Assembly (NCBI GenBank): GCA_964494475.1
Contig: CAZBRS010000013.1
Location: forward strand, 11,057 to 75,056
DNA length: 64,000 nucleotides
Source: an uncultured Myxococcales bacterium
GTDB taxonomy: Bacteria > Myxococcota_A > UBA9042 > CAZBRS01
Direction of reading: 5' to 3'
This document shows positions 1 to 56,976 of the stretch, in pieces (position 1 is the first letter of the stretch; every line of letters starts with the position of its first letter). A model generated the notes under the pieces. That model ran no database searches and was not told the DNA's origin. It saw nothing but the letters and a program-made list of their open reading frames with translations. The translations under genes and the position numbers were made by a program.

Positions 1-17
1 CACTCAGGAGGTCCCCC

Positions 18-2153: not shown

Positions 2154-2261
2154 CCTGTCGTCCTCCCGTCCTCCGACCCGCCCGCCGTCCCGCTTTCGCT
2201 TGTCAGCAGGCGCCCATCTCGGGCATACTTCGCGCGTCACAACACGACCGGGGGACGGACC

Positions 2262-4178: not shown

Positions 4179-4188
4179 GGAGGCACGC

Positions 4189-5064
4189 ATGAAGACGCAC
4201 GTTCTCCGCCCGCTCCTCGTGACCGCGGCCCTGCTCGCGCTCTCGGGCTGCATGGGCTTCCTCGAGTCCGCGTTCGAGCTCACGTTCGGGCCCGGCGACA
4301 TCGACCAGGTGCAGTTCGACATCCGCTTCCCGTCGGTCGACGACGTGGCCGCGTTCGCCGACCCGGGGGTCACCGACCTGCCGGGCTTCCCCTCCAGCCT
4401 CGACAACGCGACCCTCGCACACCTGCAGGGCGCCCTGGTCGTGCAGGGCACGTGCTCGCAGGACCTGGTCGTCGAGCAGGAGGACGCCGACGACCGCATC
4501 GACGCCAACCGCGTGTTCACGCTGACCACGTGCACCGGCGAGCCGCGCTGCGCGCCCGATTGCCCGGCCGACTTCTTCGGGCTCACCGTCCACGCGCAGG
4601 TGCCCGTCCAGCTGCTCGACGAGGCCAAGGCGGCCCAGCTCAAGGACAGCCTGGCCGAGGTCAGCCCCGACGCCATCGTGCAGGTGCGCCTGCGCTTCCT
4701 CGAGCTCACGTTCTTCCAGGTCGAAGACGGCGCCGAGGTCGACGTCACCGATCACTTCGCCGACATCCTGCTCACCATCTCGAACGCCTGGGGCGAGACC
4801 GTCGAGCTCACGGCGCCCGGCCGCATGCCGCGGGTCACTGTCGACGAGCCCCAGCGCTTCGACATCGACGCCGAGTCCGACCTCATGAAGCGCACCAAGG
4901 ACATGCTGCTGAACGCCGAACCCATCAGCCTGAACATCGGCGTGTCCATGCGCGTGCGAGAGCCCGATCTGTACTCCCTGCGCATCGCCGACGCCGGCGT
5001 GCGCGTCGACGTGCAGCCCGAGTTCGTCATCAGCGCGCTCAAGGCCGCCACCTCCAAGCTCTGA
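4189..5064 (+). CDS. Lipoprotein, function unknown
   Basis: It lies 10 nt after the upstream gene. The N-terminus MKTHVLRPLLVTAALLALSGC carries a lipobox. Composition is normal. Confidence 0.6.
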   Translation: MKTHVLRPLLVTAALLALSGCMGFLESAFELTFGPGDIDQVQFDIRFPSVDDVAAFADPGVTDLPGFPSSLDNATLAHLQGALVVQGTCSQDLVVEQEDADDRIDANRVFTLTTCTGEPRCAPDCPADFFGLTVHAQVPVQLLDEAKAAQLKDSLAEVSPDAIVQVRLRFLELTFFQVEDGAEVDVTDHFADILLTISNAWGETVELTAPGRMPRVTVDEPQRFDIDAESDLMKRTKDMLLNAEPISLNIGVSMRVREPDLYSLRIADAGVRVDVQPEFVISALKAATSKL

Positions 5065-5090
5065 GAGCCCACGGTGGCAGGGAGGAGTCC

Positions 5091-7592
5091 ATGACCCGCA
5101 GTCTCCGCACGTGGCTCGTCATCGCCGCCTTCCCGGCGGTGGCGTGTCAGGGCTACTTCGAGAACCCCGGCCCCGACGTCGCGACGGGGCCCGACCTCAC
5201 GCGCTTCGCGGGCGCCGGCGTGGGCGAAGCCTGCAGCGCCGACGACGACTGCCGCGACGGCCTGGCGTGCGAAGCGTCGGGTTGCGCTCCGATCGGCGAC
5301 CGCCTCGCCGACGAGAAGTGCCTGCTCTCGGACGAGTGCGCCGACGGCCTGAACTGCGGCTGGTCCGGCTTCTGCGCGCCCGAGGGCTCGGGCCTCGACG
5401 AGTGCGCTTCTTCGAGCGACTGCCCCAAGGGGCAGTACTGCCGGCTCGTGAGCGTGTCGGGCACGTGCGCCTCGCCGTCGTCCGACGCCGGCGATCTGGG
5501 CGCGCCCTGCGAGACCACCGCCGACTGCCTCGCGGGCCTGGCGTGCTCGTTCGTGTCGAAGACGTGCGTGGCCGGGGCTCTGCTCCTGAACCCCGACCTC
5601 TACATCGGCACGGCCTGCCCCGACGAATCGGCCGAGCCCTTCGGCGTGCGCATGGCGCTGCCGGGCTCCGACGCCAACGCCGACTTCTACTCCCTCCCGT
5701 TCCCCTCGGACGTGCGCCTCGTCGACGGGCGCGTCGACCTCTCGGGTCACCCGGTTCCGGGGCCCGGCAGCGTGGGCTTCGACCTGGTGGCCGCCGTCGT
5801 CGACGCCCTCGAGGCCGAGGCCGACGGCTTCAGCGTCTACCCGCTGGTGCTCTTCCGTTTCACGCGCCCGGTCGACCCCGCGACGTTGACGACGGGGGGC
5901 GCGAACCCGACGCTCCGCCTGGTCGAGTTGCCGTCGGGCGACGCGGTGCCCTTCACGTTCTCGTTCGCCGAGGCCCCCGGCAAGTACGCGTGCGGCCACC
6001 GCCTGGCGCTGCGCCCCACGTGGTCCAGGCCCCTGAAGGCGCGCACCACGTACGCGGCCGTCGTCACGCGCGGCGTGCGCTCCCTGGCTCCCGAAGGGCA
6101 GAGCGCCGAGGAGCCCGAGGCGCTCGACGACCTGCCGGCCTTGCTCTCGGCTTCGGCCCCCGCCGAAGCGGCCGCCAAGGCGGCATGGCAGGCCTATGCG
6201 CCCCTCCGCGCGTGGCTCGGCGCGGGCACCGTCCAGGCCGAGGCCGTGGCCGGCGCCACCGTGTTCACCACGGGTGACCCCACGGCCGTCATGAAGAGCT
6301 TCCCGGCCGCGGCCGCCGCGGCGCCCGCGCCCAAGGTCGTCAAGGCGTCCGTTACCGTGTGCCAGCCCGGTACGCGGAGCCCGTGCGCGACGCCCGACTT
6401 CGCGAGCACGGCCGACGGGCTGGCGGGCGGGGCCGACCCGCGCGACTGCCCCAAGACGGCGCTGGCGGGCTTCTACGAGGTCCACCTCAAGCTCACGCTG
6501 CCCGTGTACCAGAACGGCGAGCGACCCTACCTGCGCGAGGGTGGGGCGCTGAACCTGGTCGACGGCAAACCGGTGGCCGTCGGCACCGAGGAGGTCTGCG
6601 CGGCCGTCACCGTGCCGAGCGGCGCGATGCCGCCCTCGGGCTGGCCGCTCGTCCTGTACGCGCACGGCACCAGCGGCTCGTTCCGCACCGGCGCCGCCAC
6701 CTACGGCGAGATCGCGGCCGACTGGGGCGTGGCCACCCTGGCCATCGACCAGCCCATGCACGGCGACCGCCGGAGCTCCACCGACGATCCGGGCCCGCTC
6801 TTCTACAACTACGCGAACCCGCAGGCCGCCAAGGGCAACCTCTACCAGGGCGCGGCCGACAACTTCGCGCTGCTGCGCTTCGCCAAGGCCTTCGACGACA
6901 CGCTGGGCGCGGCCGGCCGCGTGGCCTTCGACGACGACCGCCTGGTCTACATGGGCCACTCGCAGGGTGCCACGACGGGGCCCCTCTTCCTGCCCTACGC
7001 CGACGAGTTGAAGGCGGCCGTGCTCACCGGGGCCGGCGGCTCGCTGGTCGAGGGGCTGCTCGGCAAGGAGAAGCCCTACAACGCGTCGGTGGGCATGCGC
7101 GTGGGGCTGCAGGAGATCGACCTCGACGCGTGGCACCCGGTGCTCGCGCTCATCGAGCACTACTTCGACGCCACCGAGCCCGCCCTTTACGCGCCGCTGG
7201 CCTTCGCAGAGCCCGTGGGCGAGCCGCTCTCCGTGTTGAACGTGGTGGGGTGGGACGACCACTACTCGCCCTGGCGCGCCGGCGTCATCTTCGCGGCGTC
7301 GCTCGGGGGAGCCTGGGCCGTGCCCGACCACCAGCCCGCCGACCTCGACGTGACCGGGTTCGACCCCGAGACCGACCTCGGCCTCGAGGGCGTCGACCTG
7401 CCCGCCGCAGGCCTCAGCGGCAACATCACCGCCCCGGGCGGCAAGAAGGTGACCGGCGCCTCGGTGGCCCACGTGAGCAACGGCACCTACGACGGGCACT
7501 TCGTGGGCGCGCGCAACGAAGACGCCGTCCGCCAGATCGCGACCTTCCTCGGCGACGTGTTCGCGTCGAAGACTCCGCGCGTGGTCGAGTAG
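5091..7592 (+). CDS. Secreted alpha/beta-hydrolase (esterase/lipase-like) with N-terminal Cys-rich repeat module
   Basis: The internal ATG (MTRSLRTWLVIAAFPAVAC, signal/lipobox) of the 4452..7592 ORF is the likely start. The N-terminal ~250 aa contain repeated C-x-D-C-x-x-G-L-x-C cysteine modules. The C-terminal half has the nucleophile elbow GHSQG and a LVLYAHGTSGS oxyanion-type segment, typical of the alpha/beta-hydrolase fold. Confidence 0.7.
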   Translation: MTRSLRTWLVIAAFPAVACQGYFENPGPDVATGPDLTRFAGAGVGEACSADDDCRDGLACEASGCAPIGDRLADEKCLLSDECADGLNCGWSGFCAPEGSGLDECASSSDCPKGQYCRLVSVSGTCASPSSDAGDLGAPCETTADCLAGLACSFVSKTCVAGALLLNPDLYIGTACPDESAEPFGVRMALPGSDANADFYSLPFPSDVRLVDGRVDLSGHPVPGPGSVGFDLVAAVVDALEAEADGFSVYPLVLFRFTRPVDPATLTTGGANPTLRLVELPSGDAVPFTFSFAEAPGKYACGHRLALRPTWSRPLKARTTYAAVVTRGVRSLAPEGQSAEEPEALDDLPALLSASAPAEAAAKAAWQAYAPLRAWLGAGTVQAEAVAGATVFTTGDPTAVMKSFPAAAAAAPAPKVVKASVTVCQPGTRSPCATPDFASTADGLAGGADPRDCPKTALAGFYEVHLKLTLPVYQNGERPYLREGGALNLVDGKPVAVGTEEVCAAVTVPSGAMPPSGWPLVLYAHGTSGSFRTGAATYGEIAADWGVATLAIDQPMHGDRRSSTDDPGPLFYNYANPQAAKGNLYQGAADNFALLRFAKAFDDTLGAAGRVAFDDDRLVYMGHSQGATTGPLFLPYADELKAAVLTGAGGSLVEGLLGKEKPYNASVGMRVGLQEIDLDAWHPVLALIEHYFDATEPALYAPLAFAEPVGEPLSVLNVVGWDDHYSPWRAGVIFAASLGGAWAVPDHQPADLDVTGFDPETDLGLEGVDLPAAGLSGNITAPGGKKVTGASVAHVSNGTYDGHFVGARNEDAVRQIATFLGDVFASKTPRVVE

Positions 7593-7599
7593 AGCAGGC

Positions 7600-10500
7600 A
7601 TGGCCGAGCCCCTTCCGGAGCGAAAGAGCGGCGACGGGAACCCTAGCGTGCTCACGCGCGCCCGGCGCCTGCTGGCCCTCGACGGGTCCGACCGGCGCCC
7701 GCTGGCGGCGCTCGCGCCCATCTTCGCGGTCTCGGCGGCCTCGGCCATCATCGGCTCCAGCGCTGCGAAGTCGCTGTTCCTGTCGGCCAACGAACTGGGG
7801 CTCCTGCCCTGGATGTTCCTGGCCTCGGCCACGTTCACGGCCGTGGTCTCCAGCCTGTACGTGTCGGCCATCCAGCGCGCCCCCCTCGAGGTGCGCTACC
7901 CCGTGCTGCTGGCGTTCACCCTGGTCTCGTTCGTCGCGCTCCGGTTGCTCTACCCCGTGGCCCCCGAGGTCATGTCGCTGGCGGTCTTCATCTGGCTGCC
8001 CGGCATGGGCTACCTCATCGCCCTGCAGGCGTGGAGCACCGCCTCGTCGCTGCTGCCCACGCGCCAGGGCAAGCGGCTCTTCCCTGTGCTGGCGGCGGTC
8101 GCCACGGCCGGTGCCGCGGGCGGCGGCGCGCTCGTCAAGCTGCTGCTCAACTGGTGGGAGGCCGAAGACCTGATCTGGCTGACCGCCGGGCTGCTGGTCG
8201 TGCCCCTCGTCACGGTGCGGGGCACCATCCGGCGCCTGCGACGCATCGCCGACGAGGGTCGGGGCGACCCCACGAAGGACGCCCGGAGTCCGCGCGCCAC
8301 CGACCTGCGTCCCGTCGTGGCCGAGAGCGCCGGGGTGCTGGGCGGGTTCCGGGCGATCGCGCGCTCGCCGCTCCTGTGGCGGCTGGCGCTCTTCGTCTTC
8401 TGCCTGCAGGCCATGTCGGTGCTGGTCGACTTCCAGTTCAACGGCGAGCTCAAGCGGTCGTTCTCGAAGCGGGAGATCGCCTCGTTCCTCGGCACGTTCT
8501 ACCTGGTCTCGAACGCCGTGGTCGTGCTGTTGTCGCTGTTCGCGAGCGGCCGCATCCTGAAGTCGCTGGGCGTGGGCCTGTCGCTGTCGCTGGGCGCGCT
8601 GCTCGTGGGCGCCGGCAGCGCGGTCTACCTGGTCGCGGCGGGGGGCGAGGTGGCCAGCCCCTTCGCGGCCATGGCCTTCACGGCCTTCGCGCTCCACGTG
8701 GGGCAGTACGCCATGACCCGCAACGCCATCCAGGTGCTGGTCACGCCCCTCGACACCGTCGAGGGTGAGCGCTCGCGCACGCTCATCGACGGCGTCGTAT
8801 ACCGCCTGGCGACCATCGTGGCGTCGGTGGCGTTGCTGATCGTGGCGCCGGCGGCGCAGTCGTTGTACGTGCTCTCCCCCGTGATCATCGTGGCGTCGCT
8901 GGTCGTCGTGGTGTTCGGCCTCAAGGTCGGTCCGCACTACCGCGCAGCGCTCTTCCAGGCCCTGCGGGCCCGGCGCCTCGACGACACGGCCTCGCGCATC
9001 CTCGATCGCGGGCTGGGGCGGCGGGCGCTCCGCGAGGTCGAGCGGCGGCTCCAGGATCCCGATCCCGCCGCCGTCCGCTACGCGCTCGACGTCATCAACG
9101 ATCTGCACGTCGACGTACGCCCCGAGCTGCTCGAGGCGCTGGTGCGCTTCGGACCTCCCGACATCGCCGAGCGCGCCCTGCAGACCATGCGGGTCACCGG
9201 AACCCCCCCCACGCGCGATCTCCTGCAGGCGCTCCTCGCCAGCGAGCGCCCCCTCGGGGTGGTGCGCGAGGCGCTGCACGCCTGCAACCAGGGCGGCGAC
9301 GCCTCGCTGCTCGAGGTGGTGCGGCCGCTGGTCCGGCACGCCGACCCCACGGTGGCGGCGCTCGCGGGGCTCTTCCGCTTGCGGTTCGAGGACGCGGGGG
9401 GCGTCGAGGCCATCGAGCGCGAGCTCGAGGAGGGCGAGGGGCACGATCCACGCCACCGCGCCTCGGAGGTGGGCCGGGCCGAGACCGCGCGGCAACGCGC
9501 CGTGGGCCTGGCGCGCGACCTCTTCGCCATGGTGGGCGGCGGCGCGGCGGGGGTCAGCCCCGAGGCCGTGCAGGCCATGGGGCGCATGCGCCTGCCGGCG
9601 TTCGTCGACCCGCTGATCGCGTGCCTGACCGAGCGCCGGTTGCGCGCGGCCGGCGTCGACGCGCTGGTGGCGCAGGGAGCCATCGCGTTGCCGCGCCTGG
9701 CCGAGCGCCTGGCCGAGGCCGACCTGCCCCTCAGCTCGCGCGTAGCGCTCTACCAGGTGCTCACGCGCGTGGGGTCGCGCGAGGCCGTGGCGCTGCTCGA
9801 GGAGCAGACGGGTTCGCCCTCCATGGCGGTGCGCAGCGAGGCGGTGCTGGCGCTCTGGCGGGCCGTCCGACGCCCGCAGACGGCCAAGCCCTCCGAGTCC
9901 AGGGTGCGCGCGCGCATCCTCGAGGAGATCGAGCGGCTGCGGCGCTACGCCGGGCTCGAGCGCACGGTGTCGCCGACGGGGCCCTTCCGGATGTTCTTCC
10001 GCGAAGAGCTCGAGACCGCGCGCTTCCAGGCCGAGCGGCGCGTGCTGCGCCTGCTCGGCATCCTGTACGATCGCGCGGCGCTCTACCGCGTGTACCTGCA
10101 CTACCGCTCGAAGACCCCGCGCGTGCGCAGCAACGCCATCGAGCTGCTCGAGCAGCACGTGATCGACCCGGCCCTCAAGCCCTTCGTGGGGCTGGTCGAG
10201 CGTGTGGGCGACGCCAGCGGCGAGGAGCAGATGCGCACCGTGATGGTGCGCAAGCTGGTGCCCGACGGCACCGTCGTCGAGATGCTCTCGGGGGTCGAGC
10301 CCTGGCTGCGGCGCCTGTGGTCGTGGGTCCTCGGGCGCGAAGAGAAGCCGGCGCTCGCGTTCGAGTGGGGCAACACCATCGACCGCGTGTTCCAGCTTCG
10401 GCACCTGCCCATCTTCGAGGGCCTGAGCGGCGAGCAGCTCGCGTCGATCGCGCCGGCCTGCGACCGCCGCGAGTGGCCCGCCGGGTCCACGCTCTTCGAG

Positions 10501-10788
10501 CAGGACGACGAGCCCGATTACCTCTACCTCATCCAGAACGGGGCCATCGACGTGGAGCGCAAGGGCCGCCACGTGGCCAGGCTCGGGGGCGGCGAGGCGG
10601 TGGGCGAGCTGGCCGCGCTCTACGACGCGAGGCGCAGCGCCACGGCGCGCGTGTCGGTGCCATCGCGCGTGGTGTCGGTGCCGGTCGGTGCGTTCCAGGA
10701 CCTGCTCGATCGCCACGCCGCGCTCGGTCGCACCATGATCGGCATCCTGGTCCGGCGCAGCCTCAAGCGCATCGATCGAAGGGAGTGA
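7600..10788 (+). CDS. Polytopic membrane transporter-like domain (MFS/ATP:ADP-antiporter-like) fused to HEAT repeats and C-terminal cyclic-nucleotide-binding domain
   Basis: About 12 hydrophobic helices span residues ~40-440 (e.g. LLPWMFLASATFTAVVSSLYV, VLLAFTLVSFVAL, WLTAGLLVVPLV). The middle region has repeated HEAT/PBS-lyase-like units (AAVRYALDVINDLHVDVRPELLEAL..., AAGVDALVAQGAIALPRLAERL...). The C-terminus is a cNMP-binding fold (FEGLSGEQLASIA...GEAVGELAAL...ARVSV). The start lies 7 nt after the upstream gene. Confidence 0.75.
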   Translation: MAEPLPERKSGDGNPSVLTRARRLLALDGSDRRPLAALAPIFAVSAASAIIGSSAAKSLFLSANELGLLPWMFLASATFTAVVSSLYVSAIQRAPLEVRYPVLLAFTLVSFVALRLLYPVAPEVMSLAVFIWLPGMGYLIALQAWSTASSLLPTRQGKRLFPVLAAVATAGAAGGGALVKLLLNWWEAEDLIWLTAGLLVVPLVTVRGTIRRLRRIADEGRGDPTKDARSPRATDLRPVVAESAGVLGGFRAIARSPLLWRLALFVFCLQAMSVLVDFQFNGELKRSFSKREIASFLGTFYLVSNAVVVLLSLFASGRILKSLGVGLSLSLGALLVGAGSAVYLVAAGGEVASPFAAMAFTAFALHVGQYAMTRNAIQVLVTPLDTVEGERSRTLIDGVVYRLATIVASVALLIVAPAAQSLYVLSPVIIVASLVVVVFGLKVGPHYRAALFQALRARRLDDTASRILDRGLGRRALREVERRLQDPDPAAVRYALDVINDLHVDVRPELLEALVRFGPPDIAERALQTMRVTGTPPTRDLLQALLASERPLGVVREALHACNQGGDASLLEVVRPLVRHADPTVAALAGLFRLRFEDAGGVEAIERELEEGEGHDPRHRASEVGRAETARQRAVGLARDLFAMVGGGAAGVSPEAVQAMGRMRLPAFVDPLIACLTERRLRAAGVDALVAQGAIALPRLAERLAEADLPLSSRVALYQVLTRVGSREAVALLEEQTGSPSMAVRSEAVLALWRAVRRPQTAKPSESRVRARILEEIERLRRYAGLERTVSPTGPFRMFFREELETARFQAERRVLRLLGILYDRAALYRVYLHYRSKTPRVRSNAIELLEQHVIDPALKPFVGLVERVGDASGEEQMRTVMVRKLVPDGTVVEMLSGVEPWLRRLWSWVLGREEKPALAFEWGNTIDRVFQLRHLPIFEGLSGEQLASIAPACDRREWPAGSTLFEQDDEPDYLYLIQNGAIDVERKGRHVARLGGGEAVGELAALYDARRSATARVSVPSRVVSVPVGAFQDLLDRHAALGRTMIGILVRRSLKRIDRRE

Positions 10789-10793
10789 GGGCA

Positions 10794-12332
10794 ATGGTCG
10801 TGCAGTCGACGGGCTCCCGCGACGGGTGGCCCTCCAGGCTCGAACGCCGCGTGGCCCGGGGGGCCTTCGTGCTGCTCGCGCTCGGGGTGCTGGGCCTGGC
10901 GCTGTGGCTTCCGTTCCGCGACCGGGGCACGCTGCTCGGCTTCGTGCGGGAGCAATCGAGCGGCGCCTATACGGCCGCCTGCGACCAGAAAGCGGCCAGC
11001 TACCTCTCCGACGTGCGGGAGCGGCGCTACCTGCCCCAGAGGCTGCGCATTCGCCGCTGGGAGAGCCCCAGCCACCAGGCCGGACAGGTGCTCGGCGAGA
11101 CGCTCTTCGCGTCCATGCTGGCGCGGAGGGCCACGCCGTTCGCGATCATCGAGGCGCGCGGCGGCCTGGGCAAGTCCAAGCTCGCCGCGGCCCTGGAGGC
11201 GCGCCTCTGCGGCGCCGTGGCCACCTTCCGCCTCGACGTGGGCCGCGACCTGCTGCCCCGGCTCGGGGAGCAGCTTCCGCCCGGCGAGGTCCTCGAGCAG
11301 GTCGTCGCCGAGTTGGCGGGGGTGAAGCTCGGATCTCCCGAGGCGGCCGACCTGCGCTCGCTGCTCGAGCGCGACGAGTGGGTGCTGCTGGTCGATTCGC
11401 TCGACGAGGTGGCCAGCGCCGACCGACCGCGCGTGATCGCGGCGCTGAACGAGATCGTCGTGCGCTACGGCCGCTCGTTGCGGCTCGCCGTCTTCACGCG
11501 GCCTCCGGTCTACGCCGAGACCTACGGCCTCGCGGGCGTGCACGCCTGGCTCGGCATCGAGCCCCTCGACTGCGCCGCCTCCGACGAGCGCGTGCGCTTC
11601 GCCCTCAAGAACGACGACGACGGGGCGTTCCGTGCCTTCGCGGCGGCCGTGGGGCTCGACGCCAGGAGCGTCACGCGCGAGGCCTGCCGCTACGTTCACC
11701 TCGCGACGTTCCGCGATCTGTTCGTGGCGGTCGACGTGGCGCGGGACCACGGCTTCGTGGCGCCCGAGGGCCTGACCGCGACGCGCGGAGCCATCTACGG
11801 CGCCTGGATCGACGGGCGGCTGAAGGGTGCGGGCCTGGAGCCGGCCGCCGCGCGCGCCGTGCTCGGTGGGCTGGTCGCGGCCGAGCACCCCGAGGCGGGC
11901 ACCCGCACCTTCGTGTTCACGCGCGAGCAATGCCTCCGAAGCGCCGTCGACGCCGCGCTCCCCAACGGGGAGGCGCTCTGCGCCTTGCTCGCGAAATCCG
12001 GCCTCGCCAAGCCGGTGGGCGAGGGCGGCAGCTTCCGCTTCGACAACCAGAGCGTGGCCGACTACTTCCTGGCCGCGTGGGCTGACGATCGACTGGAGGG
12101 CAACGACGGCGCTCCTGCCTGCGAGCGTCTCGCGGATCTGTCGGAGCTCTTCGAGTCCAACGAGGTCGCCGGCTTCCTGCTCGGCCTGCCCAGGGGTGGC
12201 GCCTGCGCCGAGGCCATCGTCCGGCAGCTCTGGCGAAGCGGCGCGCCGGGCGAGGAGACCTCCGCGCTCGTCGAGCAGGGCCTGGGGCCGAGGAGCCGCG
12301 AGATCGCGGTCCCGCAGGAGGTGCGCCCATGA
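10794..12332 (+). CDS. Membrane-anchored STAND/NACHT-like P-loop NTPase
   Basis: The in-frame ATG (MVVQSTG...) lies 5 nt after the upstream stop. It has one N-terminal TM helix (GAFVLLALGVLGLALWLPF). Walker A is ARGGLGKSKLA. Walker B is VLLVDSLDEV, an hhhhD-S-L-D-E motif characteristic of NACHT/STAND ATPases. A ~250-aa C-terminal helical region follows. Confidence 0.7.
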   Translation: MVVQSTGSRDGWPSRLERRVARGAFVLLALGVLGLALWLPFRDRGTLLGFVREQSSGAYTAACDQKAASYLSDVRERRYLPQRLRIRRWESPSHQAGQVLGETLFASMLARRATPFAIIEARGGLGKSKLAAALEARLCGAVATFRLDVGRDLLPRLGEQLPPGEVLEQVVAELAGVKLGSPEAADLRSLLERDEWVLLVDSLDEVASADRPRVIAALNEIVVRYGRSLRLAVFTRPPVYAETYGLAGVHAWLGIEPLDCAASDERVRFALKNDDDGAFRAFAAAVGLDARSVTREACRYVHLATFRDLFVAVDVARDHGFVAPEGLTATRGAIYGAWIDGRLKGAGLEPAAARAVLGGLVAAEHPEAGTRTFVFTREQCLRSAVDAALPNGEALCALLAKSGLAKPVGEGGSFRFDNQSVADYFLAAWADDRLEGNDGAPACERLADLSELFESNEVAGFLLGLPRGGACAEAIVRQLWRSGAPGEETSALVEQGLGPRSREIAVPQEVRP

Positions 12333-12778
12333 CCGACGATCGCCTGCAGTCGACCGGGGTCGGCGCCCCGAGCCTGCGCCTGAAGCTCGTGCGCGGGGTC
12401 TTCGAGCTGAAGGGCATTCCGCTCTTCGAGGGCCTGAACGCCGAGGATCTGCTGCCCATCGCCGAGGCCGTCACGCGCCTCGAAGCCCAGCCGGGCGACG
12501 TGATGGCGCGCGAGGGCGAGGACGCCGACGAGGTGTGGCTCGTGCTCGAGGGCAGCCTCGAGGCCTCGCGCCAGGGGCGGGTGGTGGCGCGCTACGACGC
12601 GGGCGATCTGGCGGGCGACCTCTCGTTCATCGACGGCCGGCACCCGGTCACGCTGACCGCGCGCGCGCCCGTGTCGATGCTGGCCCTCGGCCGCGACGAC
12701 TTCGAAGAATTGCTCGACCTGAACCCCGCGCTGGCGCAGAACGTGATCGGGCTGCTGTCGCGGCGGCTGCGGAGCTGA
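12329..12778 (+). CDS. Stand-alone cyclic-nucleotide-binding domain protein
   Basis: It overlaps the upstream gene by 4 nt (ATGA). The cNMP-binding fold is IPLFEGLNAEDLLPIAEAV...GEDADEVWLVLEGSL...AGDLAGDLSFIDGRHPVTLTA, with no DNA-binding HTH. Confidence 0.75.
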   Translation: MTDDRLQSTGVGAPSLRLKLVRGVFELKGIPLFEGLNAEDLLPIAEAVTRLEAQPGDVMAREGEDADEVWLVLEGSLEASRQGRVVARYDAGDLAGDLSFIDGRHPVTLTARAPVSMLALGRDDFEELLDLNPALAQNVIGLLSRRLRS

Positions 12779-12783
12779 TTACC

Positions 12784-13890
12784 TCAGGGCGCCTCGGCGT
12801 TCCGCGCCACGTTGTACACCAGCCCCAGGCTGAACAGCTTGATCAGCAGCGACGAGCCCCCGTAGCTCATGAGCGGGAAGGTGATGCCCACCACCGGCGC
12901 GAGGCCCACGATCATGCCGAGGTTCACCCAGGCCTGCACGGCGATGAGCAGGCCGCTGCCGAAGCAGACCAGGGCCCCGAATCGGTCGCGCGCGCGCGTG
13001 CTGACCAGCCACGTCCAGGCCACCAGGTAGAAATAGAGCCCGAGCAGCAGCGCGAGCCCCACGAAGCCGTGCTCCTCGGCGAAGGTGGCCAGGGCGAAGT
13101 CGGTGTGGATGGCGTACAGGTAGCGCAGGCGGGTCTTGGCGCCCTCGTGGATGCCGCGCCCCATCAGGCCGCCCGAGCCCACGGCCCAGAGGGCCTGCTT
13201 GGGCTGCATGTACTTGTCGAACAGGCGCTTGTCGACCTTCTGCAGCTCCTGGGGGTCCGTGTGCACCCAGAGGCGCACGCGATCCTTCTGGTACTCCTTG
13301 ATCATGCCGCTGTTCCAGAGCAGCGGCGCGGCCACGGCGACGATGACCAGGAGCTTCAGCACCGAGCGGCCGCTCAGCCCGTCGTAGAGCAGCATCGCCA
13401 AGAACAGGCCCGCGACGATGAGCGCGGTGCCGAGGTCGGGCTGCACGACGATGAGGCCCACCGTGAGGGCCACGACCGTGAGGGGGCGCGCCAGGTGGCG
13501 CCAGCGCAGCGCGTCGTTGGCCCGCCGCTGGTCGAGGTAGGAGGCCACCATCAGCAAGGTCGACATCTTGGCCACCTCGGAGGCCTGGAAGGTGACGCCG
13601 AACACCTCGATCCAGCGCCGGGCGTAGTTCACCTCCTTGCCGATGAGGAGCGTGAGGAAGAGCACCAGCAAGGTGGCGATGGTGAGCGGCAGCGTGAGGC
13701 GCTGGATGAGCGCGAGCTCGAGGCGCGACGTGACGAACAGCACGATGAACCCGACGATGAACCAGACGGTCTGCGCCTCGTGGTAGCGATCGTCGGTGTA
13801 GTAGTCGGCGCTCTTCAGGTTCAGCAGGCTGAGCACGGCGATGATGACCAGCACGAGGCCGGCCAGGACGTTGGCGACGCGCAGGCTCAC
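12784..13890 (-). CDS. rodA: Peptidoglycan glycosyltransferase RodA (SEDS family)
   Basis: The GTG start overlaps the mrdA stop by 4 nt. It is a ~368-aa 10-TM protein with a SEDS-typical C-terminus ...GLAPVVGITFPLMSYGGSSLL... Confidence 0.85.
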   Translation of the reverse strand: MSLRVANVLAGLVLVIIAVLSLLNLKSADYYTDDRYHEAQTVWFIVGFIVLFVTSRLELALIQRLTLPLTIATLLVLFLTLLIGKEVNYARRWIEVFGVTFQASEVAKMSTLLMVASYLDQRRANDALRWRHLARPLTVVALTVGLIVVQPDLGTALIVAGLFLAMLLYDGLSGRSVLKLLVIVAVAAPLLWNSGMIKEYQKDRVRLWVHTDPQELQKVDKRLFDKYMQPKQALWAVGSGGLMGRGIHEGAKTRLRYLYAIHTDFALATFAEEHGFVGLALLLGLYFYLVAWTWLVSTRARDRFGALVCFGSGLLIAVQAWVNLGMIVGLAPVVGITFPLMSYGGSSLLIKLFSLGLVYNVARNAEAP

Positions 13891-16082
13891 GGCGTGTCCC
13901 CCAGGTTGCCGAGCCGCCGCTCGAAGATCTTCTGCAGTGCCTGCTGCGCGATGGGCGCGGCGTTCTTGCCGCCCGAGCCTCCGTGCTCGATGAACACGAC
14001 GACCAGCACGCGCGGCGCGTCGGCCGGGGCGTAGCCGACGAACCAGGCGTGGGGCCGGAGCAACCAGGCGGCGAAGTCGGGATCGTCGACGCCCGGTCGC
14101 TTTTCGCGCGACTCGGCCGTGCCCGTCTTGCCGGACATGGGCAATTCGGCCAGGGCGATGCCGGCCGCGGTGCCCACCTCGTCGTTGATGACGCCGTACA
14201 GGCCCTCGCGGATGATGGCGCCGTACTCGTCGGGGAAGCGCACGTGGCGAACCACCTCGCGCCCCTGGGCCTCGAGCACGTGGCCGGCGTCGTCTTCGAT
14301 GGCGCGCACCAGGTGCAGCCCGAGCACGTCGCCGCCGTTCACGAGCACCGAGAAGGCGCGCGCCACCTGGAGCGGCGTCGAGAGCACGGAGGCCTGGCCG
14401 ACGGCGGCGCTGAGGGCGAAGCCGGGCAGGTAGCCGCGGGGGTCGTTCTCGCGATACCACGCCTCGGTGGGCAGCCGCCCCTTCTGTTCCGGCACCTCGA
14501 GGCCCACGGGCTCGCCGAAGCCGAAGAAGTCGCGGCCGTACAAGGCGATCGTGTCGAGGCCCAGGAGCTCGCCGACGCTGTAGTAGTACACGTCGCACGA
14601 ATGGACGAGCGACTCGACCAGGTCCATCTTGCCGTGGCCGCCCAGGTTGTGGCAGCGGAACTTGCGTCGCTTGTAGAGCACGTAGCCGTGGCACGTGAAC
14701 GTGTCGTTCTCGTCGACGATCCCCTCCATGAGCGCGGCCAGCGCCGGGACAATCTTGAAGACCGAGCCCGGCGCGTAGGCGGTCACGGCCTTGTTGAGCT
14801 GCGGGCTGTAGCGCTCGCGCGCGGTCTGCTCGGCGTCGAGCTTCTCCTGCATCGGCACCGACCGGCGCACGGCCGGCGTGGGCAGCGAGAGGTTGGGGTC
14901 GAAGGACGGCTTGGAGTAGAGCCCGAGGACCTCGCCCTCCTGGGGGTCGATGACCACCGCCGCGCCGCTGACCACGTTGCGCATGGCCTCGGAGAGCACC
15001 GTCTGGATGCGGATGTCGATGGTCAGACGCGCCGTGTGTCCGTCGACCGGGGGGGTGGAGCGGAGCTCGGTGTAGGTGGTCTGGATCGTGTGGGGGTCGC
15101 GCCGGAACCCCTTGGCATCCTTGACGAAGACCTCCTCGCCGTGGCGACCCCGCAGCTGCTTCTCGAGGGTGCGCTCGAGACCGGTGCGGCCGACCAGGTC
15201 GGCCAGACGGTAGGCGTCGGGTTCGGCCGCGAGCTCGTCCGGGGAGACCTCGTTCAGGTAGCCGACGAGGTGGCTGACCTCTTCGCGGAAGGGGTAGAAG
15301 CGGCGCAGGTTGGTGCGGATGTCGAAGCCGGGAAGCTCGTGGAGGCGCGCGTTCAGCGCCGCGTACTGGTTGTTGTAGTCCCGGTTGCAGACCGGGCAGG
15401 TCATGTTGCGGGGCGCCTCGGCCAGGGGGGCTCCGTCGACGGGGTCGGTGGTCTGCTCGGGCAGGAGGAACGTTCGCTCGCAGCGCCCGCAGCGGGCGAC
15501 CCGCTTGTTCAGCGAGTATTTGAGGCGCTGGTGGTCCACGGGGCAGAAGCGCTGCTTGTCGAGGTCGAGGGGCACGTACTCGCGACCGGTGGCGGGCGAC
15601 CAGCGCACCGCGGACTCGGGCAGGAAGCTGAGCGGGCTGCCGTCGTGGGGGCAGAAGTCCGACGTGAGCCACGGCGACACGATGAGGGTGCGGAAGCGCT
15701 TCTCCTTGTCGGCGAGCGCGGCGCTGACCTTGGCGCGGAGCGCGGCGTACTCGTCGTCGGGCAATTCGAGCAGCGCCCGCACGGTCTCGAGCTCGCCGTC
15801 GACGTCCTTGAGGTAGTGGGGAACCAGCGTGAGGCGATGGGTGTCGACGTTGCGGGCCAGCGGGCGTCCGTTGCGATCGACGATCTCGCCGCGCCGGGCG
15901 AGCACGCGCTCCTTGCCGATGGAGCTGACCTGGGAGAGCGACGCGTAGCGTTCGTGCTCGAGCACCTGCAGAAAGAAGATCCGGGCCAGCATGACGACCC
16001 ACGCCAGCGCGAAGAGGATCAGCGCCACCCGGAAGCGGGGCCGGTACTCCAGTCGACCGCGGCGAAAACTCCCGACCTCCAT
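13887..16082 (-). CDS. mrdA: Penicillin-binding protein 2 (elongasome transpeptidase) with N-terminal-domain zinc-ribbon insertion
   Basis: It has an N-terminal TM anchor. The catalytic motifs are SVFK (SxxK), SCD (SxD/N) and KTGTA. It is 731 aa, ~100 aa longer than typical PBP2 because of an insertion carrying four Cys pairs (CPHDG...CPVDH and CGRCE...CPVCN). Confidence 0.85.
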   Translation of the reverse strand: MEVGSFRRGRLEYRPRFRVALILFALAWVVMLARIFFLQVLEHERYASLSQVSSIGKERVLARRGEIVDRNGRPLARNVDTHRLTLVPHYLKDVDGELETVRALLELPDDEYAALRAKVSAALADKEKRFRTLIVSPWLTSDFCPHDGSPLSFLPESAVRWSPATGREYVPLDLDKQRFCPVDHQRLKYSLNKRVARCGRCERTFLLPEQTTDPVDGAPLAEAPRNMTCPVCNRDYNNQYAALNARLHELPGFDIRTNLRRFYPFREEVSHLVGYLNEVSPDELAAEPDAYRLADLVGRTGLERTLEKQLRGRHGEEVFVKDAKGFRRDPHTIQTTYTELRSTPPVDGHTARLTIDIRIQTVLSEAMRNVVSGAAVVIDPQEGEVLGLYSKPSFDPNLSLPTPAVRRSVPMQEKLDAEQTARERYSPQLNKAVTAYAPGSVFKIVPALAALMEGIVDENDTFTCHGYVLYKRRKFRCHNLGGHGKMDLVESLVHSCDVYYYSVGELLGLDTIALYGRDFFGFGEPVGLEVPEQKGRLPTEAWYRENDPRGYLPGFALSAAVGQASVLSTPLQVARAFSVLVNGGDVLGLHLVRAIEDDAGHVLEAQGREVVRHVRFPDEYGAIIREGLYGVINDEVGTAAGIALAELPMSGKTGTAESREKRPGVDDPDFAAWLLRPHAWFVGYAPADAPRVLVVVFIEHGGSGGKNAAPIAQQALQKIFERRLGNLGDTP

Positions 16083-16091
16083 GCGCCTCGT

Positions 16092-17138
16092 TCAACCGCG
16101 GGGGTGGTTGCCGGACTGCTGCAGCCACTTCAGGTAGCGGGAGAACAGGCCGGAGTGCGCGCCCTCGTCGAGATCGACGATCTCGAGCTCGAGCCCCGAG
16201 ACGCCGTCGGCGCGACCCGTGCGCACCTCGGAGATGCGGGTGGTGGCCAGGAGCGCCGCCTCGCCGTCGCGGGTGGGGATGGCGAGCCGCAGGGGGTAGA
16301 CGCCGTCGAGATCGACCGGACCCACCAGGGTGCGCACGAAGAGGGTCGCCGGCGAGAACTGCGTCACGCGGACGCCCAGGCGCTCGCTGCCGATCTCGAA
16401 GACGGCCGGCAGGTCGCCGTGGACGGGCCGCTCGGCCGGTTTGGGCTCGGGCGGGCGGAGGCGATGCGCGGCGGCCACGGCGTCGGAGTCGACGCTCGGG
16501 TCGTCGTCGCGAGGAGCGGCCGAGGAGCGGTGGACCGAGTGCCCCTGGTCGTGGGGGACGACCTCGACCCCCAGGGCGTCGACTTCGTCGGGGCGCGTGA
16601 TGAGGCCGATGGGCCCGGCCTCCGGGTCGCGCAGGCTGGTGCGCGCCGGGGGCAGCGTTCGCAGCACCTCGTCGGACTGGCGCTGCGCGGAGTGCTCGGC
16701 GCGCTGGCGCTCGATGACGGACCGCAGGAACGCCTCGAACGCGAAGACGGAGCGCATGCGGCCCTGCCCGACCTCGATGGAGGGCAGCAGGATCGTCGCG
16801 GAGACGCCGAACAGCACCTCGAGGAACGCGGCCAGGGTGCGGGCCTCCATGGCCGTGGTGGCCTTGAGCCAGCGCAGGCCGATGCCCGCGATGGGCTCGG
16901 TCTGGTAGCGCACCACGCGCCCCAACAGGTACACGGGCGGATCGATCCCGCACGAACGATCGAAGACCACGCCCATCTGCGTGCCCTTCTGGACGCGGCT
17001 GGCATCGGGCGACGCGAAGAGCATGCCGCCGATGCTGATGTCGATGGGCTTGCCGTCGACGCGGGTCCCGTCGTGGTAGCAGAAGACGGCGCGGTCGAAG
17101 GTGTGACGCGGGTGGATGCGGCGATCGGCGTCGTTCAT
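16092..17138 (-). CDS. PilZ domain protein (probable c-di-GMP receptor), tandem PilZ-like halves
   Basis: The internal ATG (MNDADRRIHPRH...) of the 16092..17246 ORF is the likely start. The canonical PilZ motifs are RIHPRHTFDR (RxxxR) and DISIGGMLF (D/NxSxGG). A second degenerate PilZ-like half sits C-terminally. It ends 9 nt before the mrdA start on the same strand. Confidence 0.7.
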   Translation of the reverse strand: MNDADRRIHPRHTFDRAVFCYHDGTRVDGKPIDISIGGMLFASPDASRVQKGTQMGVVFDRSCGIDPPVYLLGRVVRYQTEPIAGIGLRWLKATTAMEARTLAAFLEVLFGVSATILLPSIEVGQGRMRSVFAFEAFLRSVIERQRAEHSAQRQSDEVLRTLPPARTSLRDPEAGPIGLITRPDEVDALGVEVVPHDQGHSVHRSSAAPRDDDPSVDSDAVAAAHRLRPPEPKPAERPVHGDLPAVFEIGSERLGVRVTQFSPATLFVRTLVGPVDLDGVYPLRLAIPTRDGEAALLATTRISEVRTGRADGVSGLELEIVDLDEGAHSGLFSRYLKWLQQSGNHPRG

Positions 17139-17178
17139 GCGGGCCGCTTCGACCAGATGATGCGCGCGTAGTCTATCC

Positions 17179-18321
17179 TCAGAGGACCGCCACGTCCAGG
17201 TGCGGCACGCGGCCGTCGAGGCGCGCCACGGCGTCGGCTCCGTCACCCCAGTGCACCGTGTAGAGGACGCTCGCGTAGACGAGCGCGCGAAACGCCCGAC
17301 GAACGGGACCGAGGAGCGGATGGCGCCGGGCCAGGGAGAGCACCACGTAGGCGAAGCCCCGAACGAGGGCCTGGTCCAGGACCGGCGCGAGCAGGGCCGA
17401 GGCCACGAGCGGATCGTCGTCGTCGACGGCCAGGTGCGACAGGAACGCGTGGTGGAGCCGGCCGCCCACGGGAGGCAGGCGCGGCACGCGCAGCCAGGGC
17501 GCGAGCACGTTGACGAGCGGGCGGGCCAGCCGGAGCGCGCCCGAGTAACCGTGCACCACCGTCTGCTTGAAGGCGGTCTGGTCCCAGAGCGCGACGCAGC
17601 CCACGACTCGCCCGCCGCGCGTGGCGACCCTGAAGTCGCCGGGCGACAACCCGCGGCAACGCTCCGGGTCGGCGAGCGCGGCCGCCGTCCAGACCGGCGC
17701 GAACTGGTAGCGCCGCAGGTTGCGTTGCAGGCACTCGGCGAGCGCGTCGAGGTCGGAGGCCGCGGCGACGCGCACCTCGACCCCGGGGCAGGCGGTGGAG
17801 CGCTGCCGTCGCCAGAGGGGCAGCGCGAGCGTGTGGATTGGCTCGTGCTCGGTGTAGGTCGGCAATCCGGGGCGGGGGCGGGCCAACGCCCGGCGTGCGA
17901 GCTCGTTGCCGGCGATGAGGGTGGTCACGTAGAAGGAGGGCTCGCCGGCCCGGTCGTGCAGGCGTTGGAGGGCCGCGAAGCCGCCCCGCAGCAGGCCGCG
18001 CGTGCCGCGGTGTTCCCGGTCGACGCGCAGCTGCGCCAGGTAGCCCAGGCGCGTCGCCTCACCGTTCACGAACGCATCGCGCACGGCGCGGCTGCCGAGG
18101 CCCAAAAGGCGGCCCTCGGCGGTGCGCGCCACCACCGTCTGGTGCACGTCGCCCTCCAGCGCGGCGGCGTGGAAGAACGACGGCTCGCGCGTCAGCGCCA
18201 GCCGGAAGGCCCCGGGCATGGGGTTGTCGCGCAGCAGTCGACGGAGCTCGGGGTCGTCGGAGGGCACGGCCTCGTCGAAGACGACCGTCGGGCGCAGGTC
18301 GTTCGTTCCCGGTTGAATCAA
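17179..18321 (-). CDS. Acyltransferase-fold (GNAT/FemAB-like) protein, two tandem halves
   Basis: The composition is protein-like, with duplicated ~170-aa halves of GNAT-like secondary-structure pattern. The start is uncertain: TTG at 18321, or the upstream ATG at 18462 which would add a low-complexity Arg/Ser N-terminus. The family assignment is weak. Confidence 0.45.
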   Translation of the reverse strand: MIQPGTNDLRPTVVFDEAVPSDDPELRRLLRDNPMPGAFRLALTREPSFFHAAALEGDVHQTVVARTAEGRLLGLGSRAVRDAFVNGEATRLGYLAQLRVDREHRGTRGLLRGGFAALQRLHDRAGEPSFYVTTLIAGNELARRALARPRPGLPTYTEHEPIHTLALPLWRRQRSTACPGVEVRVAAASDLDALAECLQRNLRRYQFAPVWTAAALADPERCRGLSPGDFRVATRGGRVVGCVALWDQTAFKQTVVHGYSGALRLARPLVNVLAPWLRVPRLPPVGGRLHHAFLSHLAVDDDDPLVASALLAPVLDQALVRGFAYVVLSLARRHPLLGPVRRAFRALVYASVLYTVHWGDGADAVARLDGRVPHLDVAVL

Positions 18322-28560: not shown

Positions 28561-28613
28561 GCGGATCGTCTCCCTGAGTCGTGTCCTGAGGGTACCGGCG
28601 GGGCGCGGCCGTG

Positions 28614-41154: not shown

Positions 41155-56976
<15,822 letters not shown>

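Follow-up and report, generated by a model that had tools for sequence, protein, structure and literature searches.

Organization of the locus

Three adjacent genes, G1, G2 and G3, lie near the start of a 64,000-nucleotide stretch of DNA from an uncultured Myxococcales bacterium (assembly GCA_964494475.1, contig CAZBRS010000013.1); this whole stretch is referred to below as the window. [quoted passage not shown] By our own estimate it is very likely that the following description holds in all its parts: G1 is an NTT-HEAT-cNBD fusion, G2 is an exported NACHT protein, the genes belong to a cell-envelope operon, and the locus is not a defence system. The interest of the locus thereby shifts from defence, the setting proposed in an initial annotation, to an apparently extracytoplasmic STAND NTPase that is tied genetically to a homologue of ATP/ADP translocases.

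Frame analysis based on third-position G+C gave an unambiguous gene map for the whole window, the G+C content of which is ca. 70% and uniform throughout the 64 kb. The open reading frames (ORFs) of the three genes agree with the initial annotation in their coordinates, in the 5-nt spacing between the G1 stop and the G2 start, and in the 4-nt ATGA overlap of G2 with G3 (Table 1). A Shine-Dalgarno sequence precedes the start codons of both G2 (AAGGGAG, 8 nt) and G3 (AGGAGG, 7 nt), and together with the junctions these signals indicate that G1, G2 and G3 are translationally coupled.

The three genes had been described as a self-standing signalling module. They do travel together, as detailed below, but they form only the tail of a tightly packed run of seven plus-strand genes that starts at base 18 and had been overlooked. 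Four genes, U1 to U4, precede G1, and the successive gaps from U1 through U4 to G1 measure 108, 10, 26 and 7 nt. On the other side, the stop codons of G3 and of the convergent rodA gene are 5 nt apart (window positions 12778-12784), which leaves no space for a terminator between them; pbp2, a gene for a PilZ-domain protein and others follow. A promoter and terminator scan of positions 1-14000 returned chance-level hits only and was uninformative on the limits of the operon. The gene arrangement is best explained by a conserved cell-envelope operon of myxobacteria, made up of U1-U4 and G1-G3, of which the last three genes form the distal half.

G1 combines a nucleotide-translocase fold with a HEAT-cNBD tail

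In Pfam searches, G1 scores 62.4 bits with cNMP_binding (cutoff 27.5) and 37 bits with HEAT_2, while its membrane domain reaches 19.7 bits with TLC (PF03219), just below the cutoff of 21, and 15.9 bits with TIGR00769. Several G1 orthologues and more distant homologues carry precomputed PF03219 assignments, and homologues are named 'AAA family ATP:ADP antiporter' or 'Npt1/Npt2 family nucleotide transporter' in their sources. A phmmer search of the membrane domain against the PDB returned nothing useful, as the sequence is too distant. We therefore relied on an AlphaFold2 model, built from an alignment of 31 orthologue-like sequences, with a predicted local distance difference test (pLDDT) score of 80. 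Its best fold match in the PDB by Foldseek is the ATP-bound Arabidopsis translocator AtNTT1 (9j3l; E 1.9e-8, target TM-score 0.71 over 489 columns), followed by Chlamydia pneumoniae NTT1 (9j3n; TM-score 0.68), with the generic MFS protein sialin behind at 0.59. The 12-helix predicted domain thus superposes best on the solved NTT structures. The initial annotation had read G1 as a transporter of about 12 transmembrane (TM) helices, of either MFS or ATP:ADP antiporter type, followed by HEAT repeats and a cNBD; this domain order is confirmed, and the fold comparison puts AtNTT1 and CpNTT1 ahead of MFS. In the model, G1 is shown as an inner-membrane transporter with the ATP/ADP-translocase fold of the NTT family, the tail of which consists of a HEAT scaffold and a canonical cNBD.

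The phosphate-binding cassette of this cNBD is canonical, with both the Glu and the Arg (GELAALYDARRSATA), and its PDB matches include PycTIR (8jsk). Since G1 has a basic N terminus and an even number of helices, its HEAT-cNBD tail is strongly inferred to lie in the cytoplasm, as is G3.

Fusions of this kind are on record. Major, Embley & Williams 2017 (PMC5381601) reported fusions of the NTT-HEAT and NTT-HEAT-cNBD types, monophyletic and uncharacterised, from many free-living bacteria, and noted that a separate cNBD gene sometimes lies a few nucleotides downstream of the NTT-HEAT gene. G1 has the same three-domain order and a separate cNBD gene close downstream; it differs in being part of an operon with envelope lipoproteins and in having a NACHT gene between itself and the cNBD gene, a context unreported in that study. 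The architecture had initially been assigned to no named system. In this respect the fusions and their downstream cNBD genes have a published precedent, and the family as such is indeed uncharacterised.

A membrane transport domain followed by a cytoplasmic canonical cNBD is also found in the sperm Na+/H+ exchanger SLC9C1 and in HCN, CNG, SthK and MlotiK1, and SLC9C1 and the HCN/CNG channels may serve as a working analogy for gating of G1 by cyclic nucleotide monophosphates (cNMPs). SLC9C1 and channel proteins appear among the G1 fold matches by virtue of their cNBDs; their transport domains are unrelated to that of G1 (TM-score ca. 0.1 for SLC9C1), and they have neither a solenoid of some 400 aa of HEAT repeats before the cNBD nor a separate cNBD partner.

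G2 is a minimal NACHT module with intact NTPase motifs

G2 had been called a NACHT/STAND NTPase from its hhhhDSLDE Walker B sequence. This call is borne out by fold and transitive profile evidence, although no profile library matches the protein: G2 had no match at E<=0.1 in Pfam (including NACHT, PF05729), NCBIfam or PADLOC, and when a profile of its family was compared with the sequences in the PDB, nothing rose above P-loop-level noise (ArsA and Mrp at E ca. 1-2). A word-indexed search of 5.8 billion proteins retrieved only 21 G2 clusters. When the alignment of these 21 clusters was used for an exhaustive HMMER search, about 100 representatives of the G2 family were found and, after a gap, a weak tail of matches to the P-loop region of proteins of around 1000 aa. 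All tail proteins tested (35/35) are Pfam NACHT proteins. In addition, long members of the G2 family score above the NACHT gathering cutoff of 26.7 bits themselves (P0147, 28.5; P0149, 30.2; P0201, 40.3).

The AlphaFold2 model of G2 (pLDDT 85; predicted TM-score, pTM, 0.81) matches in Foldseek the NACHT modules of NOD2 (5irm), NLRP1 (7wge), NLRC4 (4kxf) and NLRP3 (7alv) over ca. 470-520 columns, with query TM-scores (TMq) of 0.5-0.55 and E values of 1e-9 to 1e-7 (lowest 1.8e-9). The top 30 matches are almost all NACHT modules of NLR proteins, and the model is nearest to their closed, ADP-bound or inhibitor-bound forms. An alternative reading of 'RGGxGKS' as the deviant Walker A motif of a SIMIBI/ParA protein was dropped, as the fold search gave NLR NACHT modules.

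Motif, signal and cysteine counts, here and below, were taken over 84 full-length G2-family representatives of 27-35% identity. The Walker A motif GxGK[ST] is present in 84/84, the Walker B Asp in 83/84, with DE next to it in most, and the sensor-1 Arg in 84/84. The motif of the winged-helix domain (WHD), FRFDNQSVADYFLAAW, remains recognisable when compared with the canonical YQFAHLTLQEYFAA seen in A2, with the His replaced by Asn. G2 thus shares with canonical NACHT proteins the Walker A, a Walker B of the form hhhhD[SGA]LDE, a sensor-1 Arg within T-R-P and a WHD motif F-x-[HN]-x-S-xx-[DE]-x-F-L-A-A. Its fold, in which a nucleotide-binding domain (NBD) and helical domain 1 (HD1) are followed by the WHD and helical domain 2 (HD2), is that of bacterial NACHT proteins and of NLRs such as NOD2, NLRC4 and NLRP3. 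Sequence and model together show G2 as a NACHT module reduced to its minimum (NBD-HD1-WHD-HD2), in which the NTPase motifs are intact.

The 512 residues of G2 hold the anchor and this module only. Unlike NLRs and the NACHT proteins of bacterial defence systems, G2 has no N-terminal effector domain and no C-terminal repeats or sensor domain, and it adds a lipoprotein signal or anchor and four to five conserved cysteine pairs, which make a periplasmic location probable; it is further set apart by the mostly Asn-substituted WHD His of its family, by scores below the Pfam, NCBIfam and PADLOC thresholds, and by a location outside any defence island. Judged from the sequences, G2, which folds like a NACHT NTPase and is taken to work like one, appears to depart from this kind in four respects: it stays below the profile threshold, lacks the WHD His, has no tripartite build and is predicted not to be cytoplasmic.

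G2 is predicted to be exported

The initial annotation had G2 anchored by a single TM helix. One N-terminal hydrophobic helix is indeed present, but the annotation had missed that this anchor is predicted to place the NACHT module outside the membrane. Across the family, 69/84 representatives (82%) begin with a signal peptide and a lipobox Cys; a Cys-less hydrophobic anchor is found in 8/84, including the clade of the window, and the others are truncated or have a plain signal peptide. The same crude classifier for signals and lipoboxes flagged 2/35 canonical NACHT proteins, so its false-positive rate is modest. The helix of G2 is flanked by net charges of +3 before and +1 after, which favours an N-in/C-out orientation. 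Furthermore, eight relatives have a leaderless soluble domain of ca. 250-460 aa, then one TM helix, then the NACHT module. This arrangement would also put the module outside the cytoplasm, and the build resembles that of a transmembrane receptor.

The cysteines point in the same direction. They make up 2.1% of residues in the G2 family, compared with 0.9% in canonical NACHT proteins, and eight conserved ones are present in the window G2 (C63, C139, C260, C298, C380, C396, C443 and C471). C139, C380, C396, C443 and C471 occur in 84/84 and C63 in 82/84. C260 and C298 are both present in 76 representatives and both absent from 8, never single, with six further joint losses among the long relatives; likewise, C480 and a C-terminal Cys are both present in 81 and both absent from 3 (including the window G2), again never single, with two further joint losses among the long relatives. 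The alignments thus point to five conserved cysteine pairs in the family, two of which are lost only jointly. Such strict pairwise loss argues for disulfide partners rather than for a four-ligand metal site. Altogether, sequence features strongly suggest that G2 is exported, the family consisting mostly of lipoproteins and the clade of the window being tethered by an N-in signal anchor, and, with similar strength, that four disulfides stabilise the window G2 and five stabilise most of its relatives. If exported, G2 would work on the periplasmic face of the membrane, in the company of three lipoproteins (U1, U3 and U4) and of U2, a probable outer-membrane protein. Export of a folded, nucleotide-loaded G2 by the Tat pathway was considered and set aside, twin-arginine-like motifs being present in only a few members.

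The open-access subset of the literature yielded no precedent for a NACHT protein or P-loop switch that is exported, periplasmic or a lipoprotein. Kibby et al. (bioRxiv 10.1101/2022.07.19.500537) described bacterial NACHT proteins with TM segments that may sense periplasmic signals, in which multiple TM regions act as a C-terminal sensor; an exported NACHT module is not among them.

G3 has a non-canonical but conserved cassette

The bare cNBD assignment of G3 stands, with 52.2 bits for Pfam cNMP_binding (cutoff 27.5). Whether the cNMP-binding cassettes of the locus are intact has a divided answer: that of G1 is canonical, and that of G3 deviates yet is conserved. In HMMER alignments with PKA RIalpha, the G3 cassette GDLSFIDGRHPVT has Asp for Glu and His for Arg, with an Arg one position earlier. 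Orthologues share the deviation (GDLALLDGRHGAT in locus L047 and GELAFLEESRHPVS in L075; loci of relatives are given L numbers here), and the motif RH[PG][VA] is conserved, which indicates that the site is maintained and is not decaying. The distant G3 orthologue of L070 is canonical (GELAMLDRGVRTAT), and G3 of L050 has the Arg together with Asp for Glu (GDMAMLDQEVRSAT).

The best PDB sequence match of G3 is a trypanosome PKA regulatory subunit (6flo/6h4g). The regulatory subunits of PKA in trypanosomatids are cAMP-independent nucleoside binders. They resemble G3 in that the canonical cassette Arg is missing at the aligned position in both; G3 differs from them in being a single bacterial cNBD, in having an Arg one residue earlier and in its conserved RH[PG][VA].

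The situation in L070 (12683-13078 and 14670-15062) is the reverse of that in the window: the G1-fused cNBD lacks both cassette residues (GLMALLEEAPYGAT), and the separate G3 has the canonical cassette given above. A rule by which one of the two cNBDs would always be degenerate and the other canonical was not retained as general, since only these two loci, the window and L070, stand behind it.

Conservation of the gene order

All relatives of the locus come from metagenome-assembled genomes (MAGs), and the informative titles among them read Myxococcales or Myxococcota. The full seven-gene order together with rodA is kept in L005/L047 (82% identity of G1) and in L075 (G1 55%, G2 41%, G3 48%), and synteny of the locus with the rodA/pbp2, PilZ and GH3 genes extends to relatives with as little as 55% identity of G1. 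Beyond this range, L070 (G1 38%) keeps U2-U3-U4-G1-G2-G3, L050 (G1 39%) keeps G1-G2-G3, and L048 (G1 43%) keeps U4-G1-G2 and has no G3. The order G1-G2-G3 thus persists to 38% identity of G1 and 33% of G2, so that the three genes co-occur outside the lineage of the window, in L075, L050 and L070. A 508-aa gene that follows a distant G1 in L074 was rejected as a G2 candidate (hhalign probability 0.2%).

A rough neighbour-joining tree of G2 homologues, made without bootstrap, divides them into four groups, three of which hold fixed positions around the cluster of U genes and G1. In group (i), G2 is co-directional and just downstream of G1 (the window type, L075, L050, L070 and L048); in group (ii), it converges on the 3' end of G1 (L009, L012, L021, L029, L032, L034 and L035); and in group (iii), it lies upstream of U2 (two copies in L049, L059 and possibly L046). 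Group (iv) comprises ca. 22 loci in a different context. Locus L049 (contig Ga0114933_10000395) has three G2 paralogues around a single U2-U3-U4-G1 cluster, two on the same strand upstream of U2 and one convergent downstream of G1, with a gene of the GGACT family between. Upstream of G2, a divergent gene of the PAPS_reduct family is present in nearly all non-co-directional loci (L008, L010, L014-L038 and others), and in the orphan group AHSA1 and ThiF/rhodanese genes lie downstream of the NACHT gene. Since groups (ii) and (iv) share the divergent PAPS_reduct neighbour, they point to one ancestral locus with or without the cluster attached. For the long fused relative P0149, the genomic context, a 6-kb contig, was uninformative. 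Several of the GTDB representative MAGs of L012-L014, L016, L019, L021 and L024 are titled 'uncultured Enterobacteriaceae bacterium' or 'Klebsiella pneumoniae'; from their gene content they look mislabelled.

A G2-family gene lies within ca. 4 kb of the U/G1 cluster in 17 distinct loci. Among about eight G1 homologues without U genes, none has G2, and a cNBD gene follows directly downstream instead; G2 is thus found next to G1 only where G1 carries the envelope genes U2-U4. On these comparisons, G3, the ancestral downstream partner of such transporters, is the older partner of G1, and G2 was inserted between the two; U2-U3-U4-G1 together with a gene of the G2 family is the better description of what is conserved.

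A possible nucleotide-based coupling of G1 and G2

With G1 homologous to nucleotide translocases and G2 a P-loop switch predicted to lie beyond the membrane that holds G1, nucleotide could be the shared currency of the two. In such a scheme, G1 would move adenine or other nucleotides over the inner membrane and so set their periplasmic levels, gated by cNMP through its own cNBD and probably also through G3 docked on the HEAT arm. G2 would bind, and probably hydrolyse, the periplasmic nucleotide and, as a switch driven by NTP/NDP, report to partners in the envelope or act on them. Transport might run in either direction. Cytoplasmic ATP could be exported against ADP and energise G2; or scavenged nucleotides, for example from prey, could be imported, with G2 as a periplasmic nucleotide sensor. 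The uptake option fits the nuclease-type binding domains of U1, the lipase domain of U4 and the predatory habit of many myxobacteria, and a sensor role of G2 is favoured by the relatives built from a cytoplasmic domain, one TM helix and an external NACHT module. We hold coupling of this kind tentatively, at somewhat short of even chances. A bolder proposal, that the G2 family is the first family of extracytoplasmic STAND/NACHT NTPases, made of lipid- or helix-anchored, disulfide-bonded periplasmic switches coupled genetically to a cNMP-gated ATP/ADP translocase that supplies or exposes ATP, seems to us unlikely as a whole.

A number of points weigh against the proposed coupling or the description beneath it. 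The textbook view is that the periplasm has no ATP. The conserved His of the NACHT winged-helix motif (FxHxxxQEFLAA) contacts the bound nucleotide, and in the G2 family this position is Asn in 56/84 representatives and His in 4/84. The TLC score of G1 is below the cutoff; the localisation, disulfides and nucleotide binding of G2 and the transport activity of G1 are all inferred from sequences and models; and the relatives are all metagenome-assembled, without a known cultured host. On the genomic side, three cluster loci have no G2 in their short flanks, and ca. 24/35 G2-family loci in species-representative genomes are not beside G1 and sit instead between the divergent PAPS_reduct gene and the AHSA1/ThiF genes. 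Part of the G1-G2 adjacency may be inherited synteny, given the PAPS_reduct neighbour in the convergent subfamily. In L076, U2-U3-U4 is followed by unrelated genes on the opposite strand, with neither G1 nor G2 within 10 kb, so the trio can exist apart from the transporter. Finally, NTT-HEAT(-cNBD) proteins are widespread in bacteria that do not have this NACHT family.

Several of these points would be met if the genes were adjacent without being functionally coupled, G1 and G3 forming a self-contained, cNMP-regulated transporter and G2 being an unrelated envelope protein that happens to share their conserved neighbourhood. Besides the many G2 paralogues that lie elsewhere, G1 homologues function without G2 in many phyla, and G1 with a cNBD gene occurs without it. 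It is harder to see on this account why G2 should have been placed, with junctions of 5 and -4 nt, between G1 and the cNBD gene that is its ancestral partner, why the order should persist at the low identities given above, why three G2 subfamilies should occupy three positions around the same cluster, with three copies in L049, and why G2 should accompany only those G1 genes that carry U2-U4. We consider an absence of coupling unlikely, although it is the alternative to be taken most seriously.

G2 might also be exported with a NACHT fold but have given up the use of nucleotide, serving either as a structural or ligand-binding scaffold in the periplasm or as a protein whose P-loop binds another phosphorylated molecule of the envelope. 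The unexpectedness of ATP in the periplasm, the His-to-Asn change in most members and the missing effector and sensor domains are consistent with this view. Against it stands the gene linkage to a nucleotide-translocase homologue. In addition, the Lys of Walker A, the acidic residues of Walker B and the Arg of sensor-1 are essentially invariant over the 84 representatives at 27-35% identity, which is difficult to account for if the protein neither catalyses a reaction nor binds nucleotide tightly. This alternative is improbable in our judgement.

If, on the other hand, G2 were an ordinary cytoplasmic STAND switch, tethered to the inner membrane by an N-terminal helix in N-out/C-in orientation, it could contact the HEAT-cNBD tail of G1 as well as G3. 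All characterised NACHT proteins are, to our knowledge, cytoplasmic; HEAT repeats are frequent partners of STAND proteins, HEAT_2 being present in 11/35 of the canonical NACHT tail proteins; and the genes are translationally coupled. This orientation is contradicted by the lipoprotein signal peptide, not a helix, in 82% of the family, by the charges around the helix, by the eight to ten conserved cysteines with their strict pairwise loss, and by the long leaderless domain ahead of the single TM helix in the fused relatives. We regard it as quite improbable.

We give very little credence to the anti-phage or programmed response suggested initially, in which infection would elicit a cyclic nucleotide that the two cNBDs read, so that the STAND ATPase or the transporter is switched on and the cell is killed or arrested: defence systems often contain NACHT/STAND proteins and effectors with a cNBD, and the PADLOC PycTIR/Pycsar models, like PycTIR in the PDB, are matched in their cNBD part by G1 and G3, but the PADLOC matches are limited to this generic domain and none concerns G2, no cyclase, nuclease, TIR, phage, transposon or other mobile, or defence gene was detected anywhere in the 64-kb window of uniform G+C, the synteny with rodA/pbp2, PilZ and GH3 genes and the predicted transcript shared with envelope lipoproteins speak for another setting, and a NACHT module outside the cytoplasm could not meet the cNBDs. 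Two sensors bracketing a STAND ATPase, as the locus had been described, is thus true of the gene order and not of the predicted physical arrangement. The likeness of G1 and G3 to the PycTIR effectors of Pycsar/CBASS systems is confined to cNBD fold and sequence; a cyclase gene and a TIR or other killing domain are absent, and the context is one of chromosomal housekeeping genes.

From bacteria to humans, work on NACHT/STAND NTPases has treated them as switches for immunity and cell death that act in the cytoplasm. If the reading of G2 as an exported NTPase is correct, a family with lipoprotein signals, covarying cysteine pairs and retained catalytic motifs would extend the NACHT fold to the periplasm, would raise the question of its nucleotide source, and would bear on the assumption that periplasmic processes cannot use ATP. 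The candidate source is the neighbouring G1. Its homologues serve chloroplasts and intracellular parasites as ATP/ADP translocators; G1 itself comes from a free-living lineage and is joined to a cyclic-nucleotide sensor. The two proteins would then imply that cytoplasm and periplasm exchange nucleotides in a regulated way and that nucleotides drive signalling in a compartment supposed to be free of ATP. For the NTT-HEAT-cNBD fusions, which occur widely in cyanobacteria, chlamydiae, oomycetes and deltaproteobacteria, neither a partner nor a function has been proposed since their description in 2017; the operon provides them with a concrete context of envelope lipoproteins, a probable outer-membrane protein and a P-loop protein predicted to be periplasmic. 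Should the export of the NACHT module not be confirmed, the locus would still be a clean, conserved example in which to study the roles of NTT-HEAT-cNBD proteins.

The envelope genes U1-U4

The features of the operon are collected in Table 1.

Table 1 Features of the seven-gene run in the window
Feature	Position (nt)	Strand	Description	Basis
U1	18-2153	+	Lipoprotein, lipobox LVGAC at aa 14-18; three N-terminal ExeM/NucH domain repeats	
U2	2262-4178	+	Signal peptide, Pro/Ala-rich linker, probable outer-membrane beta-barrel ending in ...GFSY	
U3	4189-5064	+	Small lipoprotein, lipobox LALSGC; no recognisable domain	
U4	5091-7592	+	Lipoprotein (FPAVAC); myxobacterial Cys-rich repeats; VolA/Pla-1-like alpha/beta-hydrolase domain	
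G1	7600-10788	+	1062 aa; NTT(TLC)-HEAT-cNBD fusion	Pfam, AlphaFold2 model, Foldseek, alignment
G1, 12 TM helices	7684-8970	+	aa 29-457	AlphaFold2 model
G1, HEAT solenoid	8983-10197	+	aa 462-866, all-helical	AlphaFold2 model
G1, cNBD	10375-10782	+	aa 926-1061, beta-roll	AlphaFold2 model
G1, phosphate-binding cassette	10603-10647	+	GELAALYDARRSATA	Alignment
G2	10794-12332	+	512 aa; N-terminal anchor, then bare NACHT module at ca. aa 83-503	AlphaFold2, Foldseek, family profile
G2, predicted N-in signal anchor	10863-10916	+	aa 24-41, hydrophobic helix	Translation
G2, Walker A	11154-11177	+	ARGGLGKS	Motif
G2, Walker B	11379-11408	+	WVLLVDSLDE	Motif
G2, sensor-1	11493-11507	+	FTRPP	Motif
G2, WHD motif	12033-12080	+	FRFDNQSVADYFLAAW	Motif
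G3	12329-12778	+	149 aa; bare cNBD protein, predicted cytoplasmic	Pfam cNMP_binding
G3, non-canonical cassette	12614-12652	+	GDLSFIDGRHPVT	HMMER and orthologue alignments

The U1 repeats match NCBIfam NF033681 in three stretches (E 8.6e-24) that cover model positions 20-123 only; they correspond to the non-catalytic N-terminal domain of ExeM/NucH extracellular nucleases, and the nuclease domain is absent. U1 is restricted to the clade of the window (L047, L075) and is missing in L070, where pepN precedes U2. The most conserved gene of the cluster is U2, with 79 homologue clusters at 45-60% identity, from Myxococcota MAGs wherever named. It has a partial and weak NCBIfam match to Leptospira ImpL63 (77 bits), and its product is a probable outer-membrane barrel. 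U3 is conserved together with U2, U4 and G1. The serine hydrolase domain of U4, a VolA-like lipase, has the nucleophile elbow GHSQGA (nt 6954-6971); the protein matches NCBIfam TIGR03502 in part (E 8.8e-15) and TIGR04201, and Pfam Abhydrolase_1 weakly. Searches of U1 and U4 against the PDB with phmmer gave nothing useful. Like G2, the products of U1-U4 are very probably extracytoplasmic.

Other genes of the window

The remaining genes of the window are of housekeeping or biosynthetic kind: besides rodA and pbp2, they include genes for CTP synthase, glutamate synthase, NUDIX and CutA proteins, four B12-radical-SAM proteins and a GH3 protein. Two other second-messenger or signalling proteins are encoded near the locus, a PilZ-domain protein (16092-17246, minus strand), the gene of which adjoins pbp2/rodA and keeps this position in L005, and, further away, an FHA-GAF protein (32620-33519, minus strand). 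The region 19144-29981 contains four genes for B12-binding radical-SAM proteins (20727-22709, 22746-24089, 24185-25855 and 28614-29981) together with a GH3-family adenylating enzyme, a flavin amine oxidase and an FAD/NAD/2Fe-2S reductase, and from this content it looks like a cluster for the modification of a lipid or natural product; the GH3 and radical-SAM neighbours are syntenic in L005. Finally, a single ORF of ca. 5266 aa occupies positions 41155-56955 on the minus strand. Its product is a giant secreted repeat protein, with repeated MopE-type metal-binding motifs and thrombospondin type 3 repeats in the N-terminal 1500 aa.

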